A DNA stretch of 64,000 nucleotides, from the NCBI GenBank assembly GCA_043805415.1, contig JAZDHZ010000034.1, positions 101,478-165,477 on the forward strand, given 5' to 3'. The notes under the pieces are model-generated. The model saw nothing but the letters and a program-made list of their open reading frames with translations, had not been told where the DNA came from and made no database searches. Of this stretch, positions 3,057 through 47,258 are shown in pieces. This DNA is from Candidatus Omnitrophota bacterium. Its GTDB lineage: Bacteria > Omnitrophota > Gorgyraeia > B26-G9. Within the stretch, counting starts at the first letter, position 1; every line of letters begins with the position of its first letter. A program made the position numbers and the translations under genes.

Positions 3057-3809
3057 ATGGTTATGAAAAATATTGTTATAGGCTTTATTTTGCTGATTAG
3101 TGTGTGTGTTGGCAACTGCTTTGCCCTGGATGCTCTGTCTCCGCGTTTGAGTCTGGATAAAACTACTTTTCAGGGATACTTGCTTAAACCTCAATTGGAG
3201 CTGCTAAAAACCGCTCAGGAATTTACCGCGGAATCTCCGAGTCCGGCGGATAAACTGGGTAAAGTTATTTTTCGAGTAAATCTTAATGGAGAAAAACTAA
3301 TTGTCCGCAAGCGCGTAGAAGATTACGGCGATGAGGTGGAAGTTCATCATGCCTTGACCCGGGTAGAGGCCAAGGGCAGGGAAAAATACTTAGGACAATG
3401 CTGGTACACTATTGATGATGTTCAGGCTGTGTTGCAGGAATCCTATGATATGACTCCTGCTGTGCGGATTGAAGACAAAGACAAAGGCAAAGGATATGGC
3501 AGCGTGCTTTTTGCCGCGGTTATTGAAAACGCTGGGCAAAATGGAATTAATCGCTTTCTTATTTACCAGCCGACAACTTCTTTGTACGAAAAATTCGGAT
3601 TTGAGGAAATTGGTGATTATGGCCTGTCTTATAAAAACCTCAAGCCAGATGATCCATCCGCGTTTAGCATAGCGCGGGATTTGGCTGGGCAGCGCGGCAA
3701 ATTACTTAGTGTTGAAGGCATGTTTTTATTTGCCTTAAAAACCGCGCGGCAGCCGATAGCTAAGTTGCAGTTTGAGATAGTAAATGATGTTCTCGATGGT
3801 TCAGTCTGA
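3057..3809 (+). CDS. Secreted GNAT-family N-acetyltransferase-like protein
   Basis: Signal peptide then DALSPRLSL motif. GKGYGSVLFAAVIENAGQNGINRFLI matches the GNAT acetyl-CoA-binding motif A (Q/R-x-x-G-x-G/A). Confidence 0.45.
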   Translation: MVMKNIVIGFILLISVCVGNCFALDALSPRLSLDKTTFQGYLLKPQLELLKTAQEFTAESPSPADKLGKVIFRVNLNGEKLIVRKRVEDYGDEVEVHHALTRVEAKGREKYLGQCWYTIDDVQAVLQESYDMTPAVRIEDKDKGKGYGSVLFAAVIENAGQNGINRFLIYQPTTSLYEKFGFEEIGDYGLSYKNLKPDDPSAFSIARDLAGQRGKLLSVEGMFLFALKTARQPIAKLQFEIVNDVLDGSV

Positions 3810-6255: not shown

Positions 6256-9200
6256 ATGTTTTTTAGAAAAAGAAATAGTTATCGCGTTAAAATCACAACT
6301 TTTATTATTTTACAGTGTTTTATAATTATAAATAGTCAAAGTATTTTTGCCCAGGAACAGCGGATTGTTTTAAGCCGCCAGCAAACAAGTACTCTTTCTC
6401 CGCACTTAAGCATCGGAATGAACTTGATTCAAGCAATTTTTTCCGAAAAAAGTCAACAGCCGATTGCCGCATCCAATCTTCCCGGAACACTGATATCATT
6501 GCGTGATACCGGAAGTATCAAAGAATTATTAAGCGGCAAAGACGTATTTTTGAATGACCTTTGGGCTAGAAAAACCTTAGGAGTACCCACGGCAATCAGT
6601 AGCCTGCGCAGTGAAGATAATAATTTTGATTTATGGGATTGGGGAAAAGGGGACATGGGTGAATCCAGCCGCCAGCATATTTTATGGTTAGCCAAGAATG
6701 GCTTTTCCCGCTGGATGCGCTTACCTAACCGGAAAACCCGGGCTTTATTCGGAGACCCCAGCCCCTATGCTTCACGCAGCGCGTTTGCCGGGGAAGATTC
6801 GGATATTGCTGTGCCGGAAGTGGAGGAATTTATTAATTCAAAACAAGCGCAGGCTTGGTATGAGCAAAATAAAAACCGGATTAAGGATTTACATAATGCG
6901 AATAGAGTAAATGGAATGGAAGTAGCGAGATTGAAAAATGAGGCTTTGTGGCTGGCAATGGAGTATTTTAAAGAAAATCATTTAAATAAAAATACTTCGC
7001 GCGGTAAAGCTTTTGATAGTTTTTTAAATGATAAAGATAATGACTGGGTAAGTGAATACGCGGAATATATGGCCATAAGCGAATATTACTGGGATACAAA
7101 AAAAGCTGTTTTTTTTGAGATAAATGAAGATATCTGGTCAAACATCGACCAAAAATTAAAAGGCCTGGTGCATGACCTGAACGTGGCCATAAGCACTGAT
7201 AAAATTAAAGATGTCGGGCGTTTATATGAAATGATTGATGATTTTTTCGCGCAGTATTACCAGAATAGTATTGTGGCAAACGAAACCGATATCTTTAGAT
7301 TGAATATTTATCAGTCATTGCTGGACAAAATAAAACAGGGAATTTTAAAAGACCTTGTGCGGGGCAATATTAAATCGCTTGTTGAGGCAGATGAACCGGA
7401 ATGCGCGAAAATACTTTTGGATGGTTATGAGCGTTCCAAACAAGCGTTTCGCTATGATATCAAAGACGCGATTGGCCAGGAATGTATGGCTGACTGGAGA
7501 AATTGGGACAATGCCGGATTGGTGGAGCGCGATCCTATTGTTTTAGCCCAATTCCGGGAAAAACTGGAAGATAAAATATTGTTTCATAAGTACGCGCAGT
7601 TTATTTTTAATGAGCAGGAAAAAAACATGAAAGAATTTGCCAACAGCAATGGCATTGCCATAGAAGGAGATATTCCTTTTTATGTGTCAACCATAAGCTG
7701 TGAAACCTGGGTGTATAAAGATAAGATATTCCGGCTTGATCCGAAAAACCGCTATCAGCAGATGGCTGACAGCGGAGCGCCGCCAGACCAGTATGACCGC
7801 GAATACGGACAAAACTGGGGCGGGACTCCTTATTATATAAATGCGGCGTTTAAGCAATTTTTCTATAAACGCACAAAACATGAATTAAAGAACGCGGATG
7901 GTATCAGGATTGATCACTTCCGGGCGCTTAATGATTTCTGGGTAATTCCTCATGGCAAGCTTGGCCGGGACGGTAAGTTTGAAGATGGGCCAAAAGATGA
8001 ATTATTGCAGCCTTTGCTTAATCTGGCATTGGGACAGTTTAAACGTTTTTTTGCCGAAGATCTGGGCTCATATCTGGAAGGAGTCTGGGATCTGATGCGG
8101 GATAATGAAGTTAAGGGCTTTCGGGTAGCGATATTCGGCCATGGTGATGATGATGACATAGTTCATCGGCAATATTCCGGGCAGATTGCTTTTTCCGGCA
8201 CGCATGATACTCAGACCTGGTTTGGCGCTTGGAATCAATGGGATAGTGTTAAACGGAGAATATTCCTGGACAGGTTTACGCATGATGATATTCCGGAGAT
8301 TTGGCAGCGCTTAACATCTGAACAGAGAAAAGGGTTTTTAAAATACCTTAATTATTTAGTAAAGCAGTTAAAAGCAGATACAGCAAACATAAACAAACAT
8401 AGCGAGTTTCAATCTGAAAGCAAAGATTTTTTCACAGAGAATAATTTTAAAACGCAGTTGAAAAAAGTCCGCGTTATTACAAGGAGTTTGGTTGATCTTG
8501 AAGAATTGCCATTTGGCGTGCAAACCGCTGTTTTCGGAATCCTGGCTTTTTCCGAAGCAGATACAGTATTTCTGCCGATGCAGGATATATTCCGGCAGGG
8601 TGAAGAGTTTCGGATAAATGTTCCGGGCAGGCCCGGAGATTGGGGCTACCGCCATCCTTATACCGGACAGGAATTGAATAAAGCAATAAATGAAGAAATA
8701 AAAAAAGCTGATGAATTAATGCGGCTGCTGGCGCAAACTTCCGGCCGGGATGTTAGCGTGCCTTTGTACAAAAAAGGCCAAGGCGTGCATATTCTGGGTG
8801 TTTCTCCGGGTGTTAATGCCAAGAAGATGTGCAAACCAGGCGAGGAGTTTATTATCTGGGCGGCAGTACAGGGTGATAAACCAGCTAAGGTTAATCTGCT
8901 GACAAATATGCCTGAGCATAATGGCGCGTATCCTAAAGAACAGGCAGTGGCCATGGAATTAGTAAAAGAATTAAAGAGCGGAACCTATCTTTATGGAGTA
9001 AGAATAAGAGCAACACAGCCAGGCAAATGGGGAGTCGCGGTTGAGGCGGATAATGTAAGAGCCGGAGAGGTTAAGGAGAATACCAGTCTGGTTGTAAGCG
9101 CTTTGGATAAAATAGCGCCTTTGGCTAAAGAACAAGAAGCTGTGCTGCGGATCGCGGCCGGGATTTCCAAGGAAAAACTGCAAAGGATTTTAAATGAGTT

Positions 9201-11184
9201 GAATCCTGATTTGGCGCAGGCCCTGCGGCAGGCATTAAAAAATTATCAGGTAGAATATGCCGGTAATGATGAGGAAAAAATCATTAATCCCAGCGGACTG
9301 GATAAAGATTTATTATATGCGAATGTGAATTTAATCCGCGAAAAATTACTTAACCTTGATTACCAACAGTTAATCAAGGAAAATTATCCTGCTTTGAATA
9401 ATAAACTTATTGCTGAGTATATGAACAGGTCGGGATGGTATTCCGCGGCAGTGCCAAATAAAATAGCGCAGACTTTGCTTAATATCGCGGTTTTACCTGG
9501 AAATCCAGAGTCTGTTATGGAAAGTCTTACCACTATTCTTGGCCACGACAACACTATTAGCGGGGAAAAGCGGGTATTATTAGATCAGGCGTTTGCCAAT
9601 GCCGCCGCGATTGCTCATGACTCGGTATTTAGAAAAGGAGATTTGTTTGTCTTAAACAAGTTTAATGATCCTGAAGCTAATCAGAAGGTGCTGTCTTTTG
9701 CCCGGTATATGGGAAATGGCAGAAAGGCGATGGTAATCAGTAATTTCAATGACTCGCGCATTAACGGAACCCTTTTGCTCAATCAGCATAATTTTGACAA
9801 AATATTTAATATCTCCAGCACTCCAGGCAGTTATTATGCTTTGATTGACAGGGTAAGCGGAGAAATATACCTGCGTGAAGGAAAAGATTTGATCGCGCAT
9901 GGTTTGTATTTTGATCTTCCGGCTCAGTCCACGCATGTTTTTATGGTTCAGAGTTTACAGGATAATACAGCCAATGTTTTGCGGTCTAAATGTAATTATT
10001 ATAATGGCAAATCTCTGCCGCTGGAAGAAATTCTTTCGCTATTAAATAATTTTGGGCTGACTTTGGATTTTCCCTGTGTGGGAAAAACAGCGCGGGCTTT
10101 TGTTCTCCAGGGTCTTTTAAACAATGTTCCGGCAAATCAATTGATCCAGGCTTTTAAAAACAATCCGGAAATCAAGATAATCGAATTTGGGTTAAACCCG
10201 GCGGAAATCGCCGCTGAGATTAGCAAATTAGCGCAAGAGTATCAAGCTGATAAGCAAGTTCAGGCTTTATGCCAGGGCCTGCGGTTTTTAAATCAAAGAG
10301 GAGCATTAAATGAAATAAATCTTGTCCTGGTTTTAAATCAGGACAAAACATCAGTTGAGGCTGTTCAGTATTTTGATCATGGTTCAAAAAGCAGGAAAAG
10401 TTATTTGTATGTTAATTTGTCGCGGCTGAATCTGGATTCAAATAATAATTCTGAAACTAAACTTTCCGCCGCGTTAATAATCGGCGCGCGGATATCACGC
10501 CAAGGGTCGATCGCGGATTATGAATTAAGCCGAACCCTTAAAGCATTTTTAGCGCTTTGGGCGCGAGACGACGCGACTTTGCCAGGGTTAATCGACAGTG
10601 AACACAAAAGGATAAAAGGCATGTTGGAATATCTTGAAACAAATCTTAATTCAGTAATAGATGAATGGAAGCTGCCGTTTCATTATAACCTGGGACATGA
10701 TACGCTGTTAAGCCACTCTTTAAGGCGCGTAGTCATGGATTTGTTTTTAAAACAAAATACTGATAATCAAGTCAGTTTAGCCACTGTGCATAATTTTGCT
10801 TATTTCTTGGCGTATTATTTGGCTGATTCCGGACAGGCAGATAAGCTTCGCGATATTTTGCTTCAAGGATTTTCTGGAAAAAAAGCATCTTTTTATGAAC
10901 AATATTTTCTTACCAGCTTTATCTCCGGAGCACTGGTTTTAAGGGACAGCAGCATAGACGCGATTTTTATTGATTTACTGGAAAATCCTTTGCCGCAAAC
11001 GGATCTTGCCTTGCGGGAAAAAATTATAAAAACAATGTGCGGTCTAAACCGTTTTGATTTAAAATTAAACAAAATCTCAGTCAAAGAGTTGGGGGCGGTT
11101 CTCCAATCCGGCAAAGCTATTGAATCACTTCCTGAGGCAACAGTCGCGATCAGGCAGTATCAGGCGATTGGACAGGCGATTTAA
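6256..11184 (+). CDS. malQ: Giant (1642 aa) secreted protein: complete GH77 4-alpha-glucanotransferase (amylomaltase) domain fused to a ~800-aa C-terminal extension of unknown function; member of the N-terminal-leader giant family
   Basis: GH77 signatures in order: IEGDIPFYVSTISCETWV (amylomaltase GDLPIYVA), SGAPPDQYDREYGQNWGGTPYY, DGIRIDHFRALNDFW (GGFRIDHFRGF), SGTHDTQTWFGAW (TGTHDNDT), PMQDIF...RINVPGRPGDWGYR (PMQD...MNIPGT). Leader MFFRKRNSYRVKITTFIILQCFIIINSQSIFAQ then STLSPHLSI. AGGAG RBS. Confidence 0.8.
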   Translation: MFFRKRNSYRVKITTFIILQCFIIINSQSIFAQEQRIVLSRQQTSTLSPHLSIGMNLIQAIFSEKSQQPIAASNLPGTLISLRDTGSIKELLSGKDVFLNDLWARKTLGVPTAISSLRSEDNNFDLWDWGKGDMGESSRQHILWLAKNGFSRWMRLPNRKTRALFGDPSPYASRSAFAGEDSDIAVPEVEEFINSKQAQAWYEQNKNRIKDLHNANRVNGMEVARLKNEALWLAMEYFKENHLNKNTSRGKAFDSFLNDKDNDWVSEYAEYMAISEYYWDTKKAVFFEINEDIWSNIDQKLKGLVHDLNVAISTDKIKDVGRLYEMIDDFFAQYYQNSIVANETDIFRLNIYQSLLDKIKQGILKDLVRGNIKSLVEADEPECAKILLDGYERSKQAFRYDIKDAIGQECMADWRNWDNAGLVERDPIVLAQFREKLEDKILFHKYAQFIFNEQEKNMKEFANSNGIAIEGDIPFYVSTISCETWVYKDKIFRLDPKNRYQQMADSGAPPDQYDREYGQNWGGTPYYINAAFKQFFYKRTKHELKNADGIRIDHFRALNDFWVIPHGKLGRDGKFEDGPKDELLQPLLNLALGQFKRFFAEDLGSYLEGVWDLMRDNEVKGFRVAIFGHGDDDDIVHRQYSGQIAFSGTHDTQTWFGAWNQWDSVKRRIFLDRFTHDDIPEIWQRLTSEQRKGFLKYLNYLVKQLKADTANINKHSEFQSESKDFFTENNFKTQLKKVRVITRSLVDLEELPFGVQTAVFGILAFSEADTVFLPMQDIFRQGEEFRINVPGRPGDWGYRHPYTGQELNKAINEEIKKADELMRLLAQTSGRDVSVPLYKKGQGVHILGVSPGVNAKKMCKPGEEFIIWAAVQGDKPAKVNLLTNMPEHNGAYPKEQAVAMELVKELKSGTYLYGVRIRATQPGKWGVAVEADNVRAGEVKENTSLVVSALDKIAPLAKEQEAVLRIAAGISKEKLQRILNELNPDLAQALRQALKNYQVEYAGNDEEKIINPSGLDKDLLYANVNLIREKLLNLDYQQLIKENYPALNNKLIAEYMNRSGWYSAAVPNKIAQTLLNIAVLPGNPESVMESLTTILGHDNTISGEKRVLLDQAFANAAAIAHDSVFRKGDLFVLNKFNDPEANQKVLSFARYMGNGRKAMVISNFNDSRINGTLLLNQHNFDKIFNISSTPGSYYALIDRVSGEIYLREGKDLIAHGLYFDLPAQSTHVFMVQSLQDNTANVLRSKCNYYNGKSLPLEEILSLLNNFGLTLDFPCVGKTARAFVLQGLLNNVPANQLIQAFKNNPEIKIIEFGLNPAEIAAEISKLAQEYQADKQVQALCQGLRFLNQRGALNEINLVLVLNQDKTSVEAVQYFDHGSKSRKSYLYVNLSRLNLDSNNNSETKLSAALIIGARISRQGSIADYELSRTLKAFLALWARDDATLPGLIDSEHKRIKGMLEYLETNLNSVIDEWKLPFHYNLGHDTLLSHSLRRVVMDLFLKQNTDNQVSLATVHNFAYFLAYYLADSGQADKLRDILLQGFSGKKASFYEQYFLTSFISGALVLRDSSIDAIFIDLLENPLPQTDLALREKIIKTMCGLNRFDLKLNKISVKELGAVLQSGKAIESLPEATVAIRQYQAIGQAI

Positions 11185-11185
11185 T

Positions 11186-14100
11186 ATGTCAGGAATTTTT
11201 AAAACTAAAATTTTAAATAGATTTCTCTGTCTGGTTATTTTGCAGATATTTCTTGTTTCCAATTTTTCCTGGGCCGCGGATGATTTGCGCGCGAATGATT
11301 TAGTTTATTCCAGCGCAACGCTTTCTCCTTCGCTTCAAATCAGCGCTGATGCGCTAAAACAATATTTTGCCCAATCCTTTGATTTAAAAACCGCGGCAAA
11401 TATAGATCCGGTTATAAAAGATATTTGCTTAGAGCTGTATAAGGCCAAGGATAAAACCACAAAAATAGAAGTTCTGGCCCTTGAGCAAGGCTATAGAGTA
11501 AAGATCAGGACTCAGAGCAATACGCCGCTTGTTTTACATTGGGGGTTTAATAATTGGCAAAAGCCTTTTAAGGAAATCTGGCCCCAGGCAGAGAATATCC
11601 GCACTTATTTTGATGAGCAGACCAAAGCAATGCGGACCATAGTCGAGGCTTCAGCTGAGGGAGATTATGTTTTTAATATTGATATCCCCTGGGAATTAGT
11701 TTCAGGAATAAACAATATTGATTTCACCTTCTTTTGCCCAGAAACCAAAGAATATAAGAAAGCAATTGAAAATAAGGATTATGTTGTGCCGGTTTCTAAT
11801 GTCTTGAACCTGGCCTTGGCGCGCTTGGCTGAAAATGCCGGGGCAGATGATCCTGAAAAAAAGCACGATCTGCTTAATTTGATAAACAAAAGGCTGGCTG
11901 CGGCCAAAGATTCAGCGGAAATAGATGAAAACAATATTCCTTTGTTTTATGACGCGCATGAAAATATTATTACCCAGATTGTGAAAAACAAAGCAGGAAT
12001 CAGAATTGATTTCTGGGTTGTAAGTAATGAGCCGCTGGTTTTACATTGGGGAATAAATGATTGGCAGTTGCCGCCAAAAAGCATTTGGCCGGACCGGACA
12101 TTATATAAAACCCGGGCTTATGAAAAAAAAGCAGTGCAAACTCAGATGCATTTGGCTTCTAAAGACGGTTTGTACCAGACCTCGATTTACATCCCTAACC
12201 AGAATTTAAAAGAAGTTAAAAACATCAAGTACAATGTACATTATCCAAATAATGGGTATTGGGATAATAATAATGAAGAGGATTATAGTTTATCGCTGCA
12301 AGCCCAGGATCTTATAGCCGCTTTGCTGCCTTACGCGACAGGCAGATTCGCTGCCCACATAAACGCCAAACAAGCTCGCGGCTTGTTAAAGAACATGGCG
12401 TTTTTCTACGCTGAGAATATGAATTACACTGATTTGTTAAAGCTTTTTCAGGGGATGGAAGGCATTGCCCCTGGGGATGATCTTGAAAAAAAAGATGTTT
12501 TGGGATTAATCCTTATTGCCAAATTAATGAACGAAGGCGCGGTTTGGGATAGTGACAAAGCTAAGATTATTATCAGTAAACAAAAGATCAGCGCCGCGAT
12601 AGCGGAGTTGATTGATAAACTTGACCCCTTAAGTGTGCAGTGGGCATTATATATATTCGGACTGCTTGACCCTTCCTGGGTCTCAATCCTTACGCATCAG
12701 CTTGATTATAAGCAGATATACCAGGATGTGCAAAACAGCAAGATCAAAGACCTGCCGAAATTTATCCAAGGGATAATCAACAGTTATGATGATTTGGAAG
12801 GAGCGCCGCAGGTTCTTTCCGCTGAGAGTATTGATGAAACCTGCCTGATCATAAAATTGAAATTCAATGATCAGATCATCAGTACAAAATGGGGCTATCC
12901 GACAAAACAGCAAAAGTATTATTATCAAAATGGGATTTTTGAACTAAGAGATTTCGGGGGAAATGAATTTTCGCCGGTAGGCCGTAAGCTTTCGCGTTAT
13001 GTGGATAAAGAAGTGATAAAAACCCAGATCTCCAGGCTGCGTGGCAAAGGCAAAAAGGCGATTGTTGACGGAATTTCCTGGCAGTCTCCGGAAGCGCTTA
13101 ATTCGGATAATTATATGTATTATCATCATAGTCTGCTGGAAAAAGACGCGGATGTCAGGAATTTATTGCTTTCCCGTGGTTCTTCCACGATCTTAGAACT
13201 TCCGGACGGGAAAAAAGCCTGGGTATTTCATCGGCCTGATTCATCAGATCAGCTTTCGCCTAATCTTAAATTCGGAACAAAGGCAGCGGAATACTGGAGA
13301 AATTATTGGCTGGAGTATTATAAATATTTTATCAATGAATTTGACGTGGATGGATTCAGGGTGGATTTACCCGGAGAGTTGAATCATCATGGAGATTATT
13401 CGGTATTTAAGAGTGTTTGTTTTGATATAGTGCGGTACGCGGCGGCAAAAGGCAAAAAAATATATTTTATTTTAGAAACATATCATGGGTACGCGAATAT
13501 CTGGGGCTGGGATGAGTTTTCCGCGTTAAATCATGATCCGCAGATAGCGCAATACGGCTATAAACCTTTCCGCTGTTATTATAAGCCGGTAATGACCAGT
13601 ATTTACCGCGGCAGCGCGTTTGATCTAAGAGCTGCTTTTGAACGCATAGCCGGCAGTGTTCAGGAATTGGTTATTTCAATTACTAATTTTGACGAGAAAA
13701 AAGCCGAGGATATTATTCCTGAAAAACAAAGGCTTAAGCGTTATATGGAGCTTTTGTATAATTTTGCCCGCGCGGGATTTGATGTAATGATTTATTTACG
13801 GGATTTAGGTCTGGGCGATATTTTGCCGATGTGCGGCGGAGATCGGGTTCTCTGGGGCGGAAAGCTGAGGGTTGTGGCGCATAAGCCGGCTACTCCGCGT
13901 CAGTTTCGGCAGAGATTGGAGCAAAGCACAGGCGATTTGCTTGAACAATCTCCTTTATATCAGGCGTTTAAAAAATCGCCGCAAAGCCCCTTATCGCGGC
14001 TGTTCTTCCGCGGCAATAAGTTAGTTTTTTATCAGCCGGGAAAAACTCCGGAAGTGTTTGATCTGGATAAGATGGCTAAGCCTGCTCCACCGGTAAAAGT

Positions 14101-15142
14101 TATGGACAGTGAGGAGGATATAAATATTTGGCTGCAGCAGCAGGTTTATTCATTAACAAATAATGAGCCGCAAACCCAAGCCTTAAGAGAAATTGAAAAT
14201 ACTTTAAAACGATTTAAGCATAGTGCAAGTGCAATGGCGGGAAAAGCTGTTTTGGCTCTGGTCTGTTCTGAGACTAAGAATTTCGCGGTTTGGGATCAGG
14301 CAAAAGGCCAAACTCAATGCCTGCGCATGCCGGTAAATAAAGTATTGGCCATAAAAAATGACCATGCTTTTGTTGTGGATATTAAACAAGCTGGCAAAAG
14401 CGAATCCCGCAGAATCCCGGCGCTGCAAATCAAGCAAAGCGGCAAATATTTGGCAATGGTTTTTGGCTTGGCTCCGGGTAAATACAGGTTTAATTTTTTG
14501 TGGCAGGAAAAACATGAAAACCAGGGCTGGGAAGAAGGCAATGGCTATGAGCTTGAAGTCAGTTCTCCGAAGACCGGGCAACCAGAGCTGGCGGTCTATA
14601 TCCCGCGTTTATCCGCTGAATATTTAAGGGATTGGGATGAAATGTTTTATCAGGCAAAAGATGCTGGCCGCAATCTGCTGACCGGAGATATGCTTACAAA
14701 GGGAATGCTTGAAAATATAGAATCCTCGATTGATTTTACCCTGCGTTATGAGTATGGCCGGGAGATTTTAGAACAAATTAAAGACAAAAAGAAAAAGCAG
14801 GTTTTCAATATTTTATATAATCAAATTTCGCAAAACCCGCGAGGCCGATACAGTTTACTGCATCATCACCATGAAAAAGATTTTTTTAAATTAGCGGAAA
14901 CTGTGCTTGAGAGTATCCCGGGTTTAGCAAGACCAGAGGCAGCCCCAATATGGCAATATTTGGACGCGCTCAAACAAGCGGATAATCCTGACCAAGGAGA
15001 ACAAAGCCAAATAGCCGTAAATATAAAACTGCTTGGTTTTATGTCTGGTTTGTTCGCGCAGATCGAAGCCCTGTCCGCGGCTAAACCCCTTGAGCTTTGG
15101 CTTAATATTGAAGCGGAGTTTTTGATTGGACAGGCAATATAG
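11186..15142 (+). CDS. Giant (~1319 aa) secreted alpha-glucan-active protein: two CBM25-like starch-binding modules plus a GH13-like catalytic signature; N-terminal-leader giant family
   Basis: ATG 1 nt after the upstream TAA (coupled). Leader MSGIFKTKILNRFLCLVILQIFLVSNFSWA then ATLSPSLQI. Repeated LVLHWGFNNWQKP / LVLHWGINDWQLPP (CBM25-type HWGxNxW). DVDGFRVDLPGE (GH13 region II GFRxD), ILETYHG (region III Glu) and ALNHDPQ (region IV NHD). The GH13 assignment is tentative. Confidence 0.6.
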   Translation: MSGIFKTKILNRFLCLVILQIFLVSNFSWAADDLRANDLVYSSATLSPSLQISADALKQYFAQSFDLKTAANIDPVIKDICLELYKAKDKTTKIEVLALEQGYRVKIRTQSNTPLVLHWGFNNWQKPFKEIWPQAENIRTYFDEQTKAMRTIVEASAEGDYVFNIDIPWELVSGINNIDFTFFCPETKEYKKAIENKDYVVPVSNVLNLALARLAENAGADDPEKKHDLLNLINKRLAAAKDSAEIDENNIPLFYDAHENIITQIVKNKAGIRIDFWVVSNEPLVLHWGINDWQLPPKSIWPDRTLYKTRAYEKKAVQTQMHLASKDGLYQTSIYIPNQNLKEVKNIKYNVHYPNNGYWDNNNEEDYSLSLQAQDLIAALLPYATGRFAAHINAKQARGLLKNMAFFYAENMNYTDLLKLFQGMEGIAPGDDLEKKDVLGLILIAKLMNEGAVWDSDKAKIIISKQKISAAIAELIDKLDPLSVQWALYIFGLLDPSWVSILTHQLDYKQIYQDVQNSKIKDLPKFIQGIINSYDDLEGAPQVLSAESIDETCLIIKLKFNDQIISTKWGYPTKQQKYYYQNGIFELRDFGGNEFSPVGRKLSRYVDKEVIKTQISRLRGKGKKAIVDGISWQSPEALNSDNYMYYHHSLLEKDADVRNLLLSRGSSTILELPDGKKAWVFHRPDSSDQLSPNLKFGTKAAEYWRNYWLEYYKYFINEFDVDGFRVDLPGELNHHGDYSVFKSVCFDIVRYAAAKGKKIYFILETYHGYANIWGWDEFSALNHDPQIAQYGYKPFRCYYKPVMTSIYRGSAFDLRAAFERIAGSVQELVISITNFDEKKAEDIIPEKQRLKRYMELLYNFARAGFDVMIYLRDLGLGDILPMCGGDRVLWGGKLRVVAHKPATPRQFRQRLEQSTGDLLEQSPLYQAFKKSPQSPLSRLFFRGNKLVFYQPGKTPEVFDLDKMAKPAPPVKVMDSEEDINIWLQQQVYSLTNNEPQTQALREIENTLKRFKHSASAMAGKAVLALVCSETKNFAVWDQAKGQTQCLRMPVNKVLAIKNDHAFVVDIKQAGKSESRRIPALQIKQSGKYLAMVFGLAPGKYRFNFLWQEKHENQGWEEGNGYELEVSSPKTGQPELAVYIPRLSAEYLRDWDEMFYQAKDAGRNLLTGDMLTKGMLENIESSIDFTLRYEYGREILEQIKDKKKKQVFNILYNQISQNPRGRYSLLHHHHEKDFFKLAETVLESIPGLARPEAAPIWQYLDALKQADNPDQGEQSQIAVNIKLLGFMSGLFAQIEALSAAKPLELWLNIEAEFLIGQAI

Positions 15143-26244: not shown

Positions 26245-27012
26245 ATGAAAAATCCGCTGCATAACAAAATAATCTGTATGGTTTGCTTATTTATTGCAAT
26301 CAGCAATACTGCTTTACCGGTTTTTGCTTTGAATAATCCGGAATCAAGCCGAAAATATTGCCTTTCCCCGTTTTTACGTATAATCAATTCTGATTTTCAA
26401 TCCAGATTTGAGAGTCTAAACTCTGACTTATTAGACAATAATTTAAACATGCCAGGGGATCTGAAAAGCCGCGCGCTGGTAGTTGGCAGGACAAGCATAA
26501 TTTTTAATAACAAAGAAATGAGCTTTTTTGAATTAACAAAAAGCCTAAACCTTTTACTTGCCAATGATCGATTTACTTACTTTGCCAGAATTGAAAAAGA
26601 TATGGTTAAATATGCGGCATTAAGCACTGTAGAGCAGCTTTTACTTGCTTTAAAGCAGTCAGAATTATCAGAATATGCTGAGCAAATTGATATTATTCTG
26701 GCAATTTTGCATCTTTCCGCTGAAGACGCGGCAATTATCCTTAGCGGCATTGAACCTTTGCAGCAAAAATCAATTACTAATCTTACTGATAAGGCCTGGA
26801 CGAATAAATTCAGAATGAAACGATTCAGCTTAACCATGGGCTATGAGCTTGATATTGCTAAAGCTTGGTATGTTAAAACATTGGAAACAGAGGCTGAGGA
26901 AAGACAGTGGTGGCATGCTATGTGCCGCAATTCAATGCCTATGAATATGTTTAAGGGTTTGAATGCTGATTTGCAGAAAAAAAATCATGGCTTAATTGAT
27001 GCTTCAATTTAA
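26245..27012 (+). CDS. Hypothetical secreted protein (LSP-motif family)
   Basis: Signal peptide MKNPLHNKIICMVCLFIAISNTALPVFA then CLSPFLRI motif. No other recognisable motifs. Confidence 0.45.
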   Translation: MKNPLHNKIICMVCLFIAISNTALPVFALNNPESSRKYCLSPFLRIINSDFQSRFESLNSDLLDNNLNMPGDLKSRALVVGRTSIIFNNKEMSFFELTKSLNLLLANDRFTYFARIEKDMVKYAALSTVEQLLLALKQSELSEYAEQIDIILAILHLSAEDAAIILSGIEPLQQKSITNLTDKAWTNKFRMKRFSLTMGYELDIAKAWYVKTLETEAEERQWWHAMCRNSMPMNMFKGLNADLQKKNHGLIDASI

Positions 27013-29257: not shown

Positions 29258-32200
29258 ATGAATTATAAACAGAAATCAAAATTCAGGCTGATATTTAGAG
29301 TCATTGCCAGCGTGCTTTTACAGGCATTTTTATTTACAAATTTTGCCTGGTGCGGTGCTGATCAGTTTATTCAAGGCAATACTGTTTGCGCGCCGGCAAT
29401 TAGCAGTACAACTATTTCTCCCGCGATCCAAGTCACTGAAGCTTCAATTCAAACTCTTTTTGTTCAATCCGCCGCGTTCCAAATGGGCAAAAGAGCAGAG
29501 TTTAAAGGCCTTGATTCTTTAAAGCAGGCAGAAGTGGAAAATGCTTTAGGCGATAAATTTAGTTTAAGCCTGAATCTAAAAGGAAAGCTAAACACCGCGT
29601 CAGTTATTCAAAATATCGAAAAAAGAACAGATATCAAAGCGGATTATAAGAAGATCCTAAACGCGATGATCCTTGAATTCGGCAAACTGGATGTTAAGTT
29701 CTATTCATATGAGACATTAGTTGAGGACTTGTTCGGGTTTGCTTCTGCTGGCAATAAGATGATCGCGATTCATTCCTCGGTATTCAGTAATCCGATTGCT
29801 CAGACGCATGAAATCGGGGAATTCTTAGCGCAAGCAGGAATGCTGAATTTTTCGCTTGGCCAGGATGACCAGCTATTGATCAGCTTAAATGGCAGTTTAA
29901 TCGGCAGGATAAAATTATCGGAAGATGCTTTGGCAATCGCGAAGAAAGATCCGTCCAGTAACCATTATTTGCTGCGGGCTTTTCAACGGGAGGTTTTTCA
30001 GGATAAGGATCGGGCTTTAACCGCTGGGATTAAAAACAAGCAGGGGGATTTATCTTCCGCGATGAAAATTTTTCTTAAAACCATAAATGCTGAGACTGGA
30101 AACAAAGTTGAAGCAAGTATGTCTTTGTCTAAACTTAATGACCCGATGTTCGAGGCGCTGTTTAAAGATATTGAGTTTAATCGGTTTTCCGAAAACGATG
30201 CGGCAAAATTAAAGATAGCGATACTATTGCAGAATAACATTGCTATTGAGCCTATTGCTGAACCCTTGCTTCAAGAGTGCGGGATGCTGAATAAGGAATC
30301 CGCTGATCTTTATGAAACCATATTCCCGGCTGCGGGAACTCCTGGTTTTAGCCCAAAAAAATTATTCGCGAAAGAAAATGTTAATCCGGATAATCTGCAT
30401 CTTATCTTTGAATTAGCTAAGCGCTATAGTCCGATTAAAGCGTTTAGCGATAAGTTAGACAGAATCTACCGCGAGCTTGCCTTATACACATTGCCGGTAA
30501 GTCCGGGAGCAAGATATCATATATCTTTGCTTAAAGATCTAAACAGTATTTTATTGTCCGGAGGACGGATTAAAGAATCAAAGCACTCGCTTAGCGGTCA
30601 GGGTGTTTATTTCTTTGAAATGGGAAATTCCGGCTTAGTCAATGCGCAGACACGCTTAGCTGAGTTTTTCCCTTTTATCTCCAGCTCGCCGCATGATCTG
30701 GCAGATGCGGATTATGTGGTTAAGGCGTTCAGGCAAAAGATTGCCCGAGACGCGAAAGATAATGCCCGGATATTCCCGGTTGTAATCCAGGTTGCTGAGG
30801 ATATCCCGGCTGAAGCTGCGATGGGCTGGGCTTTTCGTGAGGATTATAAAAAGGCGGGAAAGCTTATCCGCGATGAACTTAATGCCCAAGAGTATGAATT
30901 TTTAATCAACCTGAATTATTTATATCTTAGCGAGAACCAAGCGGTTAAAAACCATTTGCTCGCGAAAAATATTATTAGAGAAGAAAACGGGATAATCAGG
31001 CTGGTTGATGCTTCGCGGGCGATTCAGGATGAAAACAAAAAGAATACGGGTTGGGCCAGAATGAGATTTGCTGACTTGCGTTATGAAGTGATCAATCTTT
31101 CCTACACAAAGCTGGATAGTGATATCCAGAAGCTTAGCGCCAAGATGGCTCAATTACTCCAGAATCTTCTCGCTGATAAAATGAGCGTATCTTCGGTTGT
31201 GGATACAGGCTCATCAAATCGCGGGCTTACTGTGGAAAATCCGGATTTTGATTTTCTGATTAAAATTAATTCCCCAGAGGATTTTACGGCAATTGTTAAG
31301 CTGCTGCTTGATGAAAAAATATTAGAAAATTTTCTCAAGGAGCATAAAGCTGCTTTTGAAGCGATCTATGGCGATAAGTCCGTGAGTATTGTCACCGAAC
31401 AGCCGCATGCCGTAGGCAAAGGCAATTTATATTTGTTTCCGTTTAAATTTGTCGCGGCTAACCGGATTGTCGGCGGGGTTGATTTTAATTTTTCCAAGCT
31501 TTCAGCGGGAAAAGCCGAGACTTTGAGCTATCACGAGACAGCGCGGCAGCAGCTGCAAGCCATACTGGATAAAGTTCCCGAAGCAGAACAAAAACAGCTT
31601 TCCCGCTATCTTGCCGGAGAAATTAAAACCCTTAAAAAATTAATTATAAATCAGGGTTTATATAAAGATAAGGATACAAAACGAAATAGATTTATCGGCG
31701 TGGCAGTAGAACAAATGATCTACAATCTCAGCGATTATCTGTCTATGCCAAGCAATATTTCCACTGCTGAAATTAAGAGCATATTTTCAATAAAAACCGC
31801 GCTTTATTTAATCAGCCGGATGGAAAGCGAAAGATTAAATGGTCTGTCATTTTCTCTGTATCAAAGAGCAAATGGAAGCGGGTTTTCTAATCAATCGGTA
31901 AAATACGATTTAAGGGATAATGAAAAATCAGTTATCCCTAAAGTTGGGACGGCTTTTGCCGGTTTTAAAGAGTTTTCAGAAGCGGAAAATGCCGGAGTGA
32001 AAAATAAAATTAAAGGATTAATAACTGATTTTATTAGCCGGCCGGGGAATAAGGTAAAAATTATTGAGTTTTTTGCCAGGTACAATAATGAAGTTGACGC
32101 GGCGATTGCTTTAGGTCAGGCGAAACCTTTTAGTAACTGGGAATTTTTTGAAAGATGGGAATTCACGCACCGGTTTTTTACTCTGCATAAAACAGAGATT

Positions 32201-32560
32201 GATATATTCGCGATAGATAAGACTGATATGTCTCAGGACGCGAAGCTGAAAATAGCGGAAATGATCAACGGATTAAAAGCCGGGATAACTGAGTCAATGG
32301 GTGTGAGTGAAGATAAAATTACCGGTCGGGAAATCACGCGGTGGTTTAAAACTCCTTCTTCGCGGAATAAGCAGCTGAGAGATTTTTATTTTCAATATGG
32401 GGCAATAACAGCAGAACCTATATCCATCCTGGGTTTTGCTGGGTTTTTAATGAATATTCCGGCATTGCGTTCGGCAGCTGATGCTGAGCGAAAAGCGGCG
32501 CCTTTAAGCGGTATTATAAACCGCAAGCCGCTCGAACAATTAGTCGGACAGTCAATATGA
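29258..32560 (+). CDS. Giant-family secreted protein (1100 aa) with a Pol-beta-type nucleotidyltransferase motif
   Basis: Leader MNYKQKSKFRLIFRVIASVLLQAFLFTNFAWC then TTISPAIQV. VVDTGSSNRGLTVENPDFDFLIK (about 31195-31260) matches hG[GS]-x10-DhDh of the minimal nucleotidyltransferase fold. AAGGGA RBS. Extended -10 TGTGGTATAAT at about 29064-29074. Confidence 0.6.
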   Translation: MNYKQKSKFRLIFRVIASVLLQAFLFTNFAWCGADQFIQGNTVCAPAISSTTISPAIQVTEASIQTLFVQSAAFQMGKRAEFKGLDSLKQAEVENALGDKFSLSLNLKGKLNTASVIQNIEKRTDIKADYKKILNAMILEFGKLDVKFYSYETLVEDLFGFASAGNKMIAIHSSVFSNPIAQTHEIGEFLAQAGMLNFSLGQDDQLLISLNGSLIGRIKLSEDALAIAKKDPSSNHYLLRAFQREVFQDKDRALTAGIKNKQGDLSSAMKIFLKTINAETGNKVEASMSLSKLNDPMFEALFKDIEFNRFSENDAAKLKIAILLQNNIAIEPIAEPLLQECGMLNKESADLYETIFPAAGTPGFSPKKLFAKENVNPDNLHLIFELAKRYSPIKAFSDKLDRIYRELALYTLPVSPGARYHISLLKDLNSILLSGGRIKESKHSLSGQGVYFFEMGNSGLVNAQTRLAEFFPFISSSPHDLADADYVVKAFRQKIARDAKDNARIFPVVIQVAEDIPAEAAMGWAFREDYKKAGKLIRDELNAQEYEFLINLNYLYLSENQAVKNHLLAKNIIREENGIIRLVDASRAIQDENKKNTGWARMRFADLRYEVINLSYTKLDSDIQKLSAKMAQLLQNLLADKMSVSSVVDTGSSNRGLTVENPDFDFLIKINSPEDFTAIVKLLLDEKILENFLKEHKAAFEAIYGDKSVSIVTEQPHAVGKGNLYLFPFKFVAANRIVGGVDFNFSKLSAGKAETLSYHETARQQLQAILDKVPEAEQKQLSRYLAGEIKTLKKLIINQGLYKDKDTKRNRFIGVAVEQMIYNLSDYLSMPSNISTAEIKSIFSIKTALYLISRMESERLNGLSFSLYQRANGSGFSNQSVKYDLRDNEKSVIPKVGTAFAGFKEFSEAENAGVKNKIKGLITDFISRPGNKVKIIEFFARYNNEVDAAIALGQAKPFSNWEFFERWEFTHRFFTLHKTEIDIFAIDKTDMSQDAKLKIAEMINGLKAGITESMGVSEDKITGREITRWFKTPSSRNKQLRDFYFQYGAITAEPISILGFAGFLMNIPALRSAADAERKAAPLSGIINRKPLEQLVGQSI

Positions 32561-32602
32561 ATATTCTCTAGGGCAATATGATTGGGTAAATGGAACAAGA
32601 TA

Positions 32603-35600
32603 ATGAATTATAAAAAATCAAAATTCAGGCTAATCTTTAGAATAATCTCATTAGTGCTTATCCAGGCATTTCTGGTGCTTGATTTTGCCTGGGCAATAGG
32701 CGGAGAATTTCCTATTGCTGATAAAATTTCTCAGGCTGCTACGCTTGCCCCGAAAATTAGTTTAAACACTCAGGAAGTCTGGGATGCTTATGTTTACAGT
32801 TCGCAAAATTCAGCTAAGATCAATGAACTTTCCTTACCTTCTGATCAGCCGATGGTTAATATTCCCAACCAATCTCCCCTGATCAGCCGGAGAGCGTTTT
32901 TCAAAACTGTTGGGCAAAAGGTTATTGGGGCTGCCGCGGTATTAACCGGAGCGGATCTGATATTGTCGGCGCCGGCAGAAGCCAGAGACTTAACCGTGGC
33001 TTTAAGCGATTTAGTGATCAATTTTGATAAAGGGGTTGCTGAAGCGGAGTTAAATAAATATATCGCGATTATTGAAGCTCAGGGTTTTAAAGAGTTATAC
33101 AGTTTAGAAAAAAAACAAGCGCAGACATTAATCAGAATTAAGGGGTTATTCCCGCTGAACGCGGAAAAATTATCTTACGCGCTTAATGCTCAGGCTAAAG
33201 CCAGAGGTCTGGCCAAAGGGTTTGTGGTCACAGCTAGTGACGCGAGCTGGAAGCAATCGCTTACTTATCGGAGCATGCAGGCTTTTGCGAATAAAGTAGC
33301 GCGTCTTTCAGCCAGCCTGGGATTCGGGGAGATCGATTCTCCGCAGCTTATTGGGCTTTATGAGGGGATTACCTGGGTTGAGAGTAAATTTAACCAATGG
33401 GAAACCGATGCCCAGGGCAGAATCAGACCAGTAAGGTCATATACCAATGCTATCGGAGTTACCCAGGTTATAGAATCTCAGGCTGTTAAGCAGATTGCCA
33501 GGTGGATAGTAACGCATAAGGGTGGAATATCCCGCTACGCGGAAATCATGAATGAGCTGGAAAGAATGATTTCCTCTGATAGTGAAAAGCTAAAGAAATC
33601 ACTCAAGGCGAATAAGAAATTCGGGGAAGAAGCCGAAGCCCTGAAACAGTTTAATGTCTATGCTGATTTCGCGGCTTATAAAAATGCCGGATCAGATATT
33701 GAAAAACAAAAACAGATAATTCAACGAATTCACAGAAAGATCAATAGTAATCCTAAGCTTATCGGCGTGAATTTATATTACGCGCTTGCTGTTTGGCAGT
33801 ATTTACAAAACAGGAATAATCTGCGAGCGGGAGTTACCGCTGAGCTTGCCGAATCAATGGGGCAAACCGGACAAGGGCTGACCAGAAAAAATCTTCCGCT
33901 TATTGAATCCGGTTCCGGGGCATATCAGCCAATGGATCTGGAAAAAGCCGGCTTGCAGTTTGAGAGTGATTATTTCCGCTTAAATCTGCTTTATCAAATG
34001 ATTAATCCCGAGAAGATTGCTGAGCTTTTGCAAGGCGCGGAAAGTAAAATATTAGTCAACACCATGGAATACTTATCGCGGCAGATGATGACAAAAATAG
34101 GCAACCAAAAGCTTGGCTATACTTATCTTACGCTGAACTGGGATCGATACCGCCGCCTGGAACTAAGGAAAAATAAAAATAATCAATATGAGTTTACCGA
34201 AAGGCCTTTAAGTTATTTTCAAAATAAGCCTAATGGTTTTTCCGTGAGTCTTGCCGCGGCAGCTTCATATAATTCCGGGACTGGCAGTGTGGACGATGCT
34301 TTGCTGAATTTTGGTAATGCCGTAGACGCGAATAATCTTCCCTTATGGATTAAAAATATGATCGGAGCCAATCCCCAAAATATTCGGGAGCCGATAAATT
34401 ATTTAAGGGTTTTTCTGGAAGATAAGTTTAATAATACCGGAGATCTCTCGGCCCAAGAGCAAAAAATTAAAAACGAGCTTATTGCCGAACGCTATAAACG
34501 CGTTTATAAAATCCAAGACCGATTGCTGGAAAAAAGAGCTTTAATCCACAAAAACAAGGTTCGGATATACGCGGCTTATCGGCGCGATGATGGTTTTGAT
34601 TATAAGCTGGCTGCCTGGGTTGCCCAGATCGCGGGCAGTGATTATGTGGATAGTTTTTTAAGAACCCATGGATTGGATAAAAAATGGCAAGAGGAAATTC
34701 TTAAATCTTCCCAGACACTTGATATTTTAGCACCGGCTTTGGCAGATGTGAATTCGCCGGGATATGCTGCCGCGGTAAATATCCGGCGGTATTTAGATTC
34801 AAAACAGCTGGCTTCTTTGGCTAAGCGGCAAGAAGCCTTTAAGTCTAAAGAACAGGCCCGGATCGCGAGAATTGAACTGGCTAAACAAATATCTAAGGAA
34901 AAACAATGGCAGAAAACCCTGGAGGGAATGACCAGCTGGGCAATGCGTTCCACGGTCGGGGTTGCTTCGCTTGGCGCGGCCGGCGCGATTGCCTGGATTA
35001 TAAACCGCAGGGTCAAGCTGGGTAAAAAACCAGTGCCTTCGCTTATCTATCGGCTGCCATTGCAGGGTTTTTGGATTCTGGGATTTGTTACTGTCCGGCT
35101 GTTCGCGATAGTTGGAAAAATTCTGTTTGGAACCGGTAAATATGTATTCAGCTTTTTTGCTAAAGCAAAACCGCGGATAAATAAACCAAGAAGCGCGCTT
35201 CTTGCCGATCAAAAGGTAGTTAGAAATAACCGGGTTAAACAAGCGGAAAACAGATATAAAAATAAGAACCGCTTTTTTTCAATAGCTAATTTAAAAAAAC
35301 TGATTCTGGGATCAATCTTACTGGCAATAATTGCCTGGCCTTTTGCTTCCCCGGCTTTTTCTCACGCGTCGCAAAAGCAGGCACAAGCTCCTCCGGCAAT
35401 TAGTTTAAGCCAAGAATTTAAAAAAGGCTTAATTGAAATCAGTAAGAAAAGTGACCATAAGCAGCTGAATGCTCAGGGCGAGCTTACCACAATAAAAGCT
35501 AATTTAAAAAAGAATCTTGAATTCAGCAATAGCAAAGCCCGGGAAAGGGTAGAGCAGATCAATCAGTTAGCGGAAAGAAATTGGCAAAAAGCGTATGTTA

Positions 35601-46731: not shown

Positions 46732-46820
46732 ATGGCTAATGGTCAATGGTCGATAGTCAATAGTTTTTACTTTAAACTATAAGCCATAAGCTATTAGCTA
46801 TCGACTTTTTTTTAGATTGG

Positions 46821-47251: not shown

Positions 47252-47258
47252 AAATAAA

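Follow-up and report, generated by a model that had tools for sequence, protein, structure and literature searches.

Why do unrelated proteins that are predicted to be secreted and are encoded close together in one Omnitrophota genome carry the same short box behind the signal peptide? The Omnitrophota are a widespread, uncultured phylum of nano-sized and probably host- or prey-dependent bacteria, noted for the largest known bacterial proteins. The stretch that raises this question, hereafter the window, comprises 64,000 nt of a Candidatus Omnitrophota bacterium (assembly GCA_043805415.1, 169.5-kb contig JAZDHZ010000034.1, positions 101,478 to 165,477, forward strand). A preliminary description of this DNA had reported an LSP-type box behind the signal peptide of four small proteins and of a "giant family", nine proteins in 64 kb. 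Our findings reveal that the box is real and that it belongs to a two-ended tag, which is phylum-wide and larger than the feature first noted. The tag consists of an N-terminal module (leader, spacer, and box) and a tail at the extreme C-terminus. Within the sources covered, i.e., Pfam, NCBIfam, the Omnitrophota giant-protein papers, and an incomplete coverage of the full-text literature, leader, box, and tail appear to have no earlier description.

Nucleotides 3057–3200 of the window form the 5′ part of a gene whose 250-aa product shows weak matches to GNAT acetyltransferases. This product begins with MVMKNIVIGFILLISVCVGNCFA, followed after the predicted cleavage point by LDALSPRLSLDKTTFQGYLL. 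The corresponding stretches of the other small proteins, named here by their gene starts, are ...VFALNNPESSRKYCLSPFLRI (26245), ...CFADLLSESFLSPVSNI (41729), and ...AFA...TVFLAPYLTI (48991), as previously noted. The LSP core of the reported motif stood, while the motif itself proved longer than stated. The full box is (S/D)-T-L-(S/A)-P-x-h-x-h-(D/N)-x3-(F/L)-Q-x2-F (h, hydrophobic), or TL[SA]PxhxI[DN]xxx[FL]QxxF in compact form. It stands behind a Sec-type signal peptide in 9 of the 39 window proteins, which together account for 9,678 of the 19,002 coding residues (51%).

The regular expression [LI][SA]P.h.h had 9 matches over the 39 window proteins (19,002 residues), 8 of these at residues 27–53. 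To avoid circularity, a 20-column log-odds matrix was trained on 132 boxes from non-window proteins only. With this matrix, 3057, 26245, 41729, and 48991 scored 22.1, 13.9, 16.4, and 21.0 bits, respectively, and the five large window proteins scored 18.7–40.3 bits. All nine boxes lay at residues 27–53, directly behind the hydrophobic N-terminus, which bears out the count of nine. Chance or composition was a natural alternative, given that L, S, P, and I are common residues, that the core tripeptide is short, and that LSP occurs 13 times in the window proteome. This alternative is refuted. Shuffling the proteome 200 times gave a mean maximum of 3.5 bits and an expectation of 0.07 sites of at least 10 bits per proteome, against 10 observed with the externally trained matrix; the positions of the nine top sites and the independent co-occurrence of the box with a C-terminal tail, described below, likewise argue against chance. 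The motif is thus commoner than composition predicts.

Beyond the nine, the next best site reached 11.0 bits, and all others scored 4 bits or less. Outside the N-termini, nothing exceeded 10 bits except this weak box-like stretch, SDYLSMPSNISTAEIKSIFS at residue 828 of the protein encoded at 29258. Chance may account for it, as the shuffle maximum reached 15.3 bits, or it may be left over from an earlier gene fusion. Signal-peptide proteins 1926, 16039, 23061, 47470, and 55738, for which absence of the motif had already been noted, gave no high-scoring matrix match, nor did 27275, 47937, and 51738. Protein 55738 was the sole one of these among the 22 best sites, with −1.1 bits at an internal position (residue 332). 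As a candidate tenth member, protein 27275 (FLSTKIETL) was discarded, having no matrix score, no hidden Markov model (HMM) match, and no tail.

All-vs-all BLASTP of the motif proteins found similarity confined to the first ~70 residues. The members are therefore unrelated proteins with a common N-terminal module, and the "giant family" is not a homologous family; nothing beyond the first ~70 residues and the last ~6 is common to its members. The leader reads K-x-K-h-h-F-(K/R 97%)-I-I-(A/S)-h-(I/V)-L-I-Q(92%)-A-F(91%)-L(80%)-h-h-(D/N 87%)-h-A-W(66%)-(A/C 87%)-G-G, and across most members it keeps the canonical wording K-x-K-h-h-F-K-I-I-A-h-h-L-I-Q-A-F-L-h-h-D-h-A-W-A-G-G. Its hydrophobic core has 13 residues with a central Gln, and the net charge is +3.5 ahead of the core and −1.5 behind it. 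The layout is that of a Sec signal peptide with an A-x-A site, i.e., A (60%) at −3, W, A/C (87%), then GG. From the −3/−1 rule, the leader would be cleaved by signal peptidase I. To our knowledge, generic signal peptides never show this degree of sequence conservation. After a spacer of ~15 poorly conserved residues follows the box, with the logo (S/D)-T(62%)-L(89%)-(S 58%/A 32%)-P(89%)-x-(L/I/V)-x-(I/L)-(N/D/S)-x3-(F/L/I)-(Q/K)-x2-F(68%). Counted from the conserved leader Gln, the box Leu most often lies at a distance of 27 residues and usually within 19–31. The four small window proteins have ordinary-looking leaders with CFA, VFA, or AFA sites and no LIQAFL...AWAGG, and they keep the box. 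The match of 41729 to the whole-module HMM is weak because its leader is non-canonical.

The constraint on these marks acts on the protein and not on a DNA or RNA element, since the codons of box, tail, and stop vary synonymously between genes. Paralogues are only ~20–45% identical in the module, yet specific positions are 80–97% conserved phylum-wide. The stretch NTLSPRLNLDRTAFQTYL is retained between diverging flanks in P0163, an orthologue of the GNAT-like protein with 46% identity in the alignment. An AlphaFold model of the module (122-sequence alignment) consists of a helix at residues 4–31, a low-confidence coil at 32–55 that includes TLAPKISL, and a second helix at 56–68 that begins at the conserved D/N, with no tertiary packing. 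In this model, the box behaves as a linear motif, in which an extended segment leads into an N-capped amphipathic helix, (D/N)xxx(F/L)QxxF. For the GNAT-like protein (3-sequence alignment), the predicted local distance difference test score was below 50 at both ends and ~70–82 over most of the core (69–213); neither box nor tail was thus confidently packed in this model.

A module profile built from 11 N-termini was searched exhaustively against 1.84 billion cluster representatives. This search returned 170 representatives at E ≤ 1e-3, nearly all matched at residues 1–80 and ranging from ~55 to ~3,700 residues, the shortest being fragments. With a word-indexed protein database, the same profile recovered only 3 short fragments. 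The module is restricted to the Omnitrophota, the source names recovered being Candidatus Omnitrophota/Omnitrophica, "PVC group bacterium", and unclassified or likely mislabelled metagenome-assembled genomes. One cluster (P0089) holds short fragments labelled "Candidatus Pacebacteria" from contigs of 1–2 kb, which are probably mis-binned.

The conserved C-terminal tail was absent from the preliminary description and was found here. Over the last six residues, the logo reads L/F/I - I/V - E/G - Q(63%) - A(62%)/S(38%) - I(93%)/V(7%), with the stop codon directly after. All 9 module proteins of the window carry the tail (GQAI twice, GQSI, EQAI, QEAI, EHSI, LNSI, DASI, and DGSV), versus 0 of the 30 other window proteins. 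Among the 347 six-frame open reading frames (ORFs) of at least 50 aa in the window, 11 end in [AS][IV]; besides the nine module proteins, these comprise two short antisense ORFs. In 14 GTDB loci, the tail expression matched 24 of the 28 module ORFs with a complete 3′ end, or ~27 of 28 after inspection. Three of the four misses end in YAI, ISI, or IAI, and the fourth is a frameshift-split gene whose second half ends in FINQAI. This gene (locus L006, 3615–4262 and 4249–6879) has the module in its first part, and the split is either an assembly error or a pseudogene. These GTDB loci came from a 10-sequence subset searched with one narrow pattern and therefore under-sample the tagged set. In 16 independent loci (14 metagenome and 2 other), 23 of 24 module ORFs carried the tail, and 6 of 7 tailed "non-module" ORFs were cut at the 5′ end by the locus boundary. 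The tail was present in 105 of 149 cluster representatives, most of the others being short proteins or fragments on small contigs. Both marks also hold at the upper end of the size range: a 7,410-aa "AAA family ATPase" of Candidatus Omnitrophica (P0155) has a canonical module at residue 1 and ends in NILVEQAI. A 3,711-aa "partial" entry (P0016) is its front half, and P0154 is the other half. Orthologues of the GNAT-like protein end in DASI and DQSI, and P0002, a 68%-identical homologue of the protein encoded at 53147, ends in AIINSI.

The tagged passengers are mostly without Pfam matches, and those matched are domains that are normally cytoplasmic. In the window, these are a GH77 4-alpha-glucanotransferase, a glucan-water-dikinase-type Ig domain, an S-adenosylmethionine (SAM) methyltransferase, GNAT, cNMP-binding, GGDEF, P-loop kinase-like, and UPF0489 domains. 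The 67 further members add methyltransferases, GGDEF, HEAT, GT1/GT4, trehalose synthase, phosphoglucomutase, CBM48/AMPK glycogen-binding, ATP-grasp, and HTH_3 domains. Cofactor motifs of the passengers look intact (RRGGDEF, GPSGAGKT, ELGSGIGN, and KGKGYG). The untagged signal-peptide proteins of the window are a GH26 enzyme, another glycoside hydrolase, an Amidase_3 lipoprotein, a DUF4139 protein, and a TPR-metallopeptidase; the lipoproteins 47937 and 55738 have neither box nor tail. Tagged cytoplasmic-type and untagged envelope-type proteins thus form two classes of predicted exported proteins, separated by the tag.

The tag was compared with known sorting systems. The N-terminus shares the generic features of Sec and signal peptidase I substrates, i.e., a K/R-rich n-region, the 13-residue core, and small residues at −3/−1, including the CFA, VFA, and AFA sites of the small proteins. 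It is not a lipoprotein signal for signal peptidase II, as Cys occupies the lipobox position in 16% and is preceded by W. The n-region (K-x-K..F-K/R) has no twin arginine of the Tat type, and the G|F-T/S-L-I-E site of type IV prepilins (class III) is absent from the module logo. A double-glycine leader for C39 peptidase-containing ABC transporters (PCAT) was also rejected, with GG at 59% and 37%, D/N at −7, and an uninterrupted 13-residue hydrophobic core. Pfam and NCBIfam gave no N-terminal match in the 9 full-length proteins, their 9 N-terminal peptides (E ≤ 10), or the 67 further members, and neither ESPR, YSIRK, KxYKxGKxW, nor other curated signal domains were matched. The closest likeness of ESPR (type V secretion), YSIRK-G/S, and KxYKxGKxW (accessory Sec) to the Omnitrophota leader is a lineage-restricted, conserved signal peptide on unrelated and often very large exported proteins, coexisting with ordinary signal peptides in the same genome. 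Unlike in these systems, the Omnitrophota conservation lies in the h- and c-regions (LIQAFL..D.AWAGG) and is joined by a box and a C-terminal tail.

The PEP-CTERM/exosortase, GlyGly-CTERM/rhombosortase, and LPXTG/sortase systems also mark unrelated proteins of one lineage, each with a motif, a hydrophobic helix, and a basic cluster. These tripartite C-terminal signals are mirrored by the Omnitrophota module, which runs from basic cluster through helix, GG, and spacer to the motif, the last on the same periplasmic side. In contrast to those signals, the module is N-terminal, and the C-terminus of its members has no transmembrane helix or basic cluster. The window proteins and N-terminal peptides matched no NCBIfam sorting-signal model, and PEP-CTERM, LPXTG, GlyGly-CTERM, and the type IX secretion C-terminal domain were rejected. 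The tail is not an outer-membrane beta-signal either, since its last residue is I or V and the pattern h-h-x-Q-small-I does not alternate. As a very short and invariantly terminal motif, it resembles the peroxisomal signal PTS1 (-SKL), KDEL, PDZ ligands (outer-membrane protein YxF for DegS, non-polar tails for Prc/Tsp), and EEVD (read by TPR). It differs from all of them in its (E/G)-Q-(A/S)-I sequence, which ends hydrophobic on proteins of any length and fold. The terminal I/V may suit a ligand of PDZ domains or tail-specific proteases; no PDZ protein was found among the window proteins. We know of no bacterial system that joins such a tail with an N-terminal signal-peptide module.

Sorting information in the first mature residues for crossing or plugging the outer membrane is known from CsgA N22/CsgG and from the TPS domain with TpsB, and information at both ends is known from LapA-type giant adhesins, which combine a retention module with a C-terminal type I secretion signal. 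Unlike these, the Omnitrophota proteins have Sec-type leaders, with no sequence or domain similarity, and no TPS domain, RTX repeat, or type I-type signal was detected. RTX-type type I secretion was thus rejected, there being a Sec-type leader and no RTX or HemolysinCabind match. A resemblance of the box to a TonB box (DTL...) was rejected on its invariant Pro, which is known to uncouple Ton boxes. The layout is analogous to that of Plasmodium PEXEL (RxLxE/Q/D) and oomycete RxLR proteins, in which a signal peptide is followed 15–30 residues on by a motif and then by diverse effector bodies, in large repertoires of a host-dependent organism. PEXEL is cleaved by plasmepsin V. The likeness is one of layout alone: both systems are eukaryotic, their motif sequences are unrelated, and they have no C-terminal tail, and the Omnitrophota are bacteria whose dependence on hosts or prey is itself deduced from a few studies. 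Beyond the generic n-h-c and A-x-A features, the tag belongs to none of the compared systems; in concept, it is a lineage-specific sorting signal.

Module genes occur in tandem arrays of 3–6 and often almost abut (Table 1). Further arrays are found in loci L001, L002, L003, L004, L005, L009, L012, L023–L026, and L030. The stop codon of gene 6256 and the start codon of gene 11186 read TAA-T-ATG (11182–11188), and spacing is also close at 32560–32603. Such spacing suggests translational coupling within the arrays. As called mechanically, the ORF runs from 11120 to 15142 and overlaps the gene before it; translation probably starts at ATG 11186.

Table 1. Tagged genes of the window and the positions of their N-terminal modules and tails (bits, score with the box matrix; E, match to the module HMM)
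Feature	Coordinates	Strand	Remarks
GNAT-like protein, N-terminal module	3057..3185	+	Non-canonical signal peptide MVMKNIVIGFILLISVCVGNCFA; box ALSPRLSLDKTTFQGYLL at nt 3132-3185; 22.1 bits
GNAT-like protein, tail VLDGSV + stop	3789..3809	+	Gene 3057-3809
GH77 (MalQ-like) 1,642-aa protein, N-terminal module	6256..6444	+	Gene 6256-11184; box TLSPHLSIGMNLIQAIFS; E = 9.7e-14; 40.3 bits
GH77 protein, tail AIGQAI + stop	11164..11184	+	Next module gene ATG 11186, 2 nt on
1,318-aa protein with glucan-water-dikinase-like Ig domain, N-terminal module	11186..11371	+	Gene 11186-15142; box TLSPSLQISADALKQYFA; E = 2.4e-17; 35.1 bits
1,318-aa protein, tail LIGQAI + stop	15122..15142	+	
255-aa protein, no Pfam domain, N-terminal module	26245..26412	+	Gene 26245-27012; box CLSPFLRIINSDFQSRFE; E = 1.3e-3; 13.9 bits
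255-aa protein, tail LIDASI + stop	26992..27012	+	
1,100-aa protein, N-terminal module	29258..29464	+	Gene 29258-32560; near-canonical leader ...VLLQAFLFTNFAWCGAD; box TISPAIQVTEASIQTLFV; E = 5e-18; 18.7 bits
1,100-aa protein, tail LVGQSI + stop	32540..32560	+	
2,979-aa protein, canonical N-terminal module	32603..32794	+	Gene 32603-41542; MNYKKSKFRLIFRIISLVLIQAFLVLDFAWAIGG...ATLAPKISLNTQEVWDAYV; E = 3e-23; 21.3 bits
2,979-aa protein, domains	gene 32603-41542	+	cNMP-binding, GGDEF (RRGGDEF), P-loop kinase-like, UPF0489
2,979-aa protein, tail LLEQAI + stop	41522..41542	+	
566-aa protein, N-terminal module	41729..41875	+	Gene 41729-43429; TTG start, 41723 or 41729; box FLSPVSNIDLGSLQKTFT; 16.4 bits; whole-module HMM E = 0.07
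566-aa protein, tail ACQEAI + stop	43409..43429	+	
788-aa protein, N-terminal module	48991..49164	+	Gene 48991-51357; box FLAPYLTIDATSIQTSAS; E = 1.8e-7; 21.0 bits
788-aa protein, tail VIEHSI + stop	51337..51357	+	
780-aa SAM-methyltransferase protein, N-terminal module	53147..53305	+	Gene 53147-55489; box TLSPVAVVSNANFKKAFD; E = 6.7e-10; 20.4 bits; 100% identical to NCBI V1747_07900
780-aa protein, tail AVLNSI + stop	55469..55489	+	

The flanks of the arrays are conserved, with SMC, GGDEF, TPR-peptidase, and HemN genes upstream and GH116, SmpB, amidase, MurI, and queuosine genes downstream. Within the conserved block of SMC, GGDEF, TPR-peptidase, and HemN-like radical SAM genes lies a secreted TPR + Peptidase_MA_2 protein (window 23061–24440), whose HEYTH and NEGLAEY motifs are intact. 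Its gene is upstream of module arrays in the window, in L002 (6077–7495), and in L004 (4197–5594), and ORFs that resemble it by sequence lie near module genes in L021 (3473–4654) and L029 (13644–14957). It is possible, as a lead, that this protein binds the tail or box or processes the cargo. The adjacency is conserved synteny among related genomes and is therefore not independent evidence.

Several further features of the window and loci were recorded. A type IV pilin-like ORF (...GFSLIEL) with several unannotated genes lies ~8 kb upstream of a module gene in L014 (1905–2399) and L027 (28–522), which are two samples of the same region; it was not seen in other contexts. A transfer-messenger RNA (tmRNA) gene (46820–47252, + strand; Rfam, 176 bits) directly follows smpB (46276–46731). 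ARAGORN predicts for it an unusually long tag, ALLERIGSGIAHPTFTGFVPAAVLL, which may be in the wrong frame. Because this predicted tag ends in ...AAVLL, mimicry of a tmRNA degradation tag by the C-terminal tail was rejected. The 156-aa ORF at 5456–5926 aligns with a penicillin-binding-protein transpeptidase domain only over the C-terminal part of that domain (profile 106–296 of 299) and is probably a truncated gene or pseudogene remnant. On the + strand are 37 of the 39 genes taken as real, the only minus genes being a GAF-GGDEF pair (21658–22851). GC skew is positive throughout and cumulative skew rises monotonically, so the window lies within one replichore.

We propose that the leader/box and the tail form a bipartite, lineage-specific sorting tag on Omnitrophota cargo, a reading to which we assign a probability of roughly 0.55. 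A sorting or processing role, as the preliminary description had suggested for the box, is favored because the box is a short linear motif in a predicted non-globular region, because its distance from the leader is constrained, because it is kept across non-homologous passengers and orthologues, because the ordinary signal-peptide proteins of the window are without it, and because it co-occurs almost perfectly with the mark at the extreme C-terminus. That earlier suggestion is partly supported: sorting as a second step fits our findings, while propeptide cleavage and lipid or glycan attachment find no support in the data here. It also did not foresee the C-terminal tail or the cofactor-dependent passengers, which alter what needs explaining. 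The first element of the proposed tag would comprise the basic n-region, the 13-residue core with its invariant Gln (FKIIAhhLIQAFLhh), the D-h-A-W-(A/C)-G-G close, the spacer, and the box, and the second would be the extreme C-terminus h-h-(E/G)-Q-(A/S)-I-COOH. The leader would drive Sec passage over the inner membrane with the N-terminus inside, as the flanking charges predict. With the chain still near the membrane, a dedicated factor at the periplasmic face may read the box as a linear peptide. Reading close to the inner membrane would explain the constrained spacing and the conserved polar Q and D/N of the leader. A carboxylate-binding module of the PDZ or TPR type could then read the free C-terminal tripeptide and thereby certify that the cargo is complete. 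Together, both marks would route the cargo away from the ordinary periplasm to the cell surface, a membrane-tethered assembly, or a host or prey cell. A type II secretion/type IV pilus-like locus with a parvulin-type (Rotamase_2) peptidyl-prolyl isomerase is reported to adjoin Omnitrophota giant genes (West-Roberts et al.). This locus, PDZ domains of the GspC or CtpA type, and the TPR + Peptidase_MA_2 protein are leads to the machinery.

A tentative extension of this scheme, which we regard as improbable at present, is that the tag is a bacterial host-targeting code. The tagged proteins, from 250-aa acetyltransferases to chains of more than 7,000 aa, would then be effectors that are exported by Sec and subsequently delivered by a machine onto or into prey or host. 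The type II secretion/type IV pilus-like locus is the candidate machine, in which the isomerase might read the S/A-Pro of the box and a PDZ domain the tail. Effector domains that depend on GTP, ATP, SAM, or acetyl-CoA would become active inside the host cell.

Several observations weigh against the sorting-tag reading. Passengers that require GTP, ATP, SAM, or acetyl-CoA are odd for the periplasm or exterior unless they end in the cytoplasm of another cell. The canonical leader is lacking in the small proteins, and leader conservation may therefore partly reflect common descent of an N-terminal cassette. No dedicated partner, receptor or enzyme, is consistently adjacent in the locus neighbourhoods, where the flanks are housekeeping genes in conserved synteny. 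Furthermore, ~36% of members have a second hydrophobic segment 40–60 residues past the box, which is often signal-peptide-like or Tat-like and often has basic residues before it and an A-x-A-like site after it. In the protein encoded at 32603, this segment (32879–32992, residues ~93–130) has a Tat-like SRRAFFK, a G/A-rich core, and APAEA; others are found in P0008, P0014, P0015, P0018, P0028, P0031, and P0037, and one subfamily reads ...PFASPALSAAS...QAQAPP. Such a segment suggests a hairpin topology, or a module fused ahead of proteins with their own signals. Most of such a protein may thus end up back in the cytoplasm, with the N- and C-terminal marks not necessarily in one compartment. The parity of transmembrane segments estimated by hydropathy, used to ask whether box and tail face the same side of the membrane, changed with the threshold, and ~40–65% of members had no second hydrophobic segment.

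If the leader were instead an uncleaved signal anchor, the tag could serve as a membrane tether and assembly code, with box and tail docking in trans or on a common scaffold to assemble the products of an array. This would be a non-covalent route to "giant protein"-like, membrane-associated complexes. The tandem arrays with near-zero spacing, the two marks being short peptides at flexible ends, and the further transmembrane segments of many members fit this arrangement, and the cofactor-dependent domains would be sensible if held at the cytoplasmic face. A 2026 preprint also reads most long Omnitrophota proteins as membrane-anchored. We nevertheless consider a tether doubtful. The A-x-A site of the leader is a textbook one, its core spans 13 residues, and its strong positive-inside bias puts the passenger outside; the members without a second hydrophobic segment are numerous at any hydropathy threshold used. 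Box and tail are near-identical in all members, so any pairing would be non-specific, and a tail always at the last residue points to receptor-type recognition of a free carboxylate, not to a docking helix.

The invariably terminal position of the tail is equally what processing or quality control would call for, as a non-polar extreme C-terminus is a classic determinant for tail-specific proteases and PDZ domains. QAI would then be a degron or the ligand of a periplasmic PDZ or tail-specific protease (Prc/CtpA/DegP type), the box would be a propeptide site, and the marks would govern the maturation or turnover of costly large proteins and not their destination. The TPR + Peptidase_MA_2 gene near the arrays of three loci, and the similar ORFs in two more, could supply the enzyme. 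This adjacency is conserved synteny, the predicted tmRNA tag is unlike the tail, cleavage at the box is putative, and it would be wasteful to place a degron on half of what is encoded locally; we judge this explanation distinctly unlikely. Still less probable, in our estimate, is that the marks are inherited cassettes with no dedicated function, i.e., that recombination or duplication distributed the 5′ and 3′ gene ends within a fast-evolving gene repertoire, much as happens in variable surface-protein families, with the conserved residues reflecting shared ancestry and generic Sec requirements. The tandem arrays and extreme passenger diversity would suit such spread, and the internal signal-peptide-like or Tat-like segments suggest fusion ahead of proteins with their own signals. 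Shared ancestry sits poorly with the low module identity of paralogues beside positions conserved across the phylum, with synonymous codon variation, and with orthologues at 46% identity that keep box and tail while the flanks diverge. Generic Sec export needs neither mark, and the ordinary signal-peptide proteins of the window are without both.

Herein, the tag addresses an open question in the Omnitrophota, namely how giant proteins are exported, placed, and used. An N-terminal profile combined with a C-terminal regular expression gives a simple handle on a cargo set that takes up half of the window coding capacity and reaches more than 7,000 aa. The cargo repertoire can thereby be defined genome by genome, which enables phylogenetic profiling for the machinery. 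The tag also predicts precise N- and C-terminal peptides for existing proteomes and offers portable signals for reporters. If the host-targeting extension were true, the tag would be a bacterial functional analogue of PEXEL/RxLR and would explain "cytoplasmic" enzymes with signal peptides. The tag sharpens the paradox of nucleotide-cofactor enzymes behind signal peptides, the resolution of which bears on the lifestyle of the phylum.

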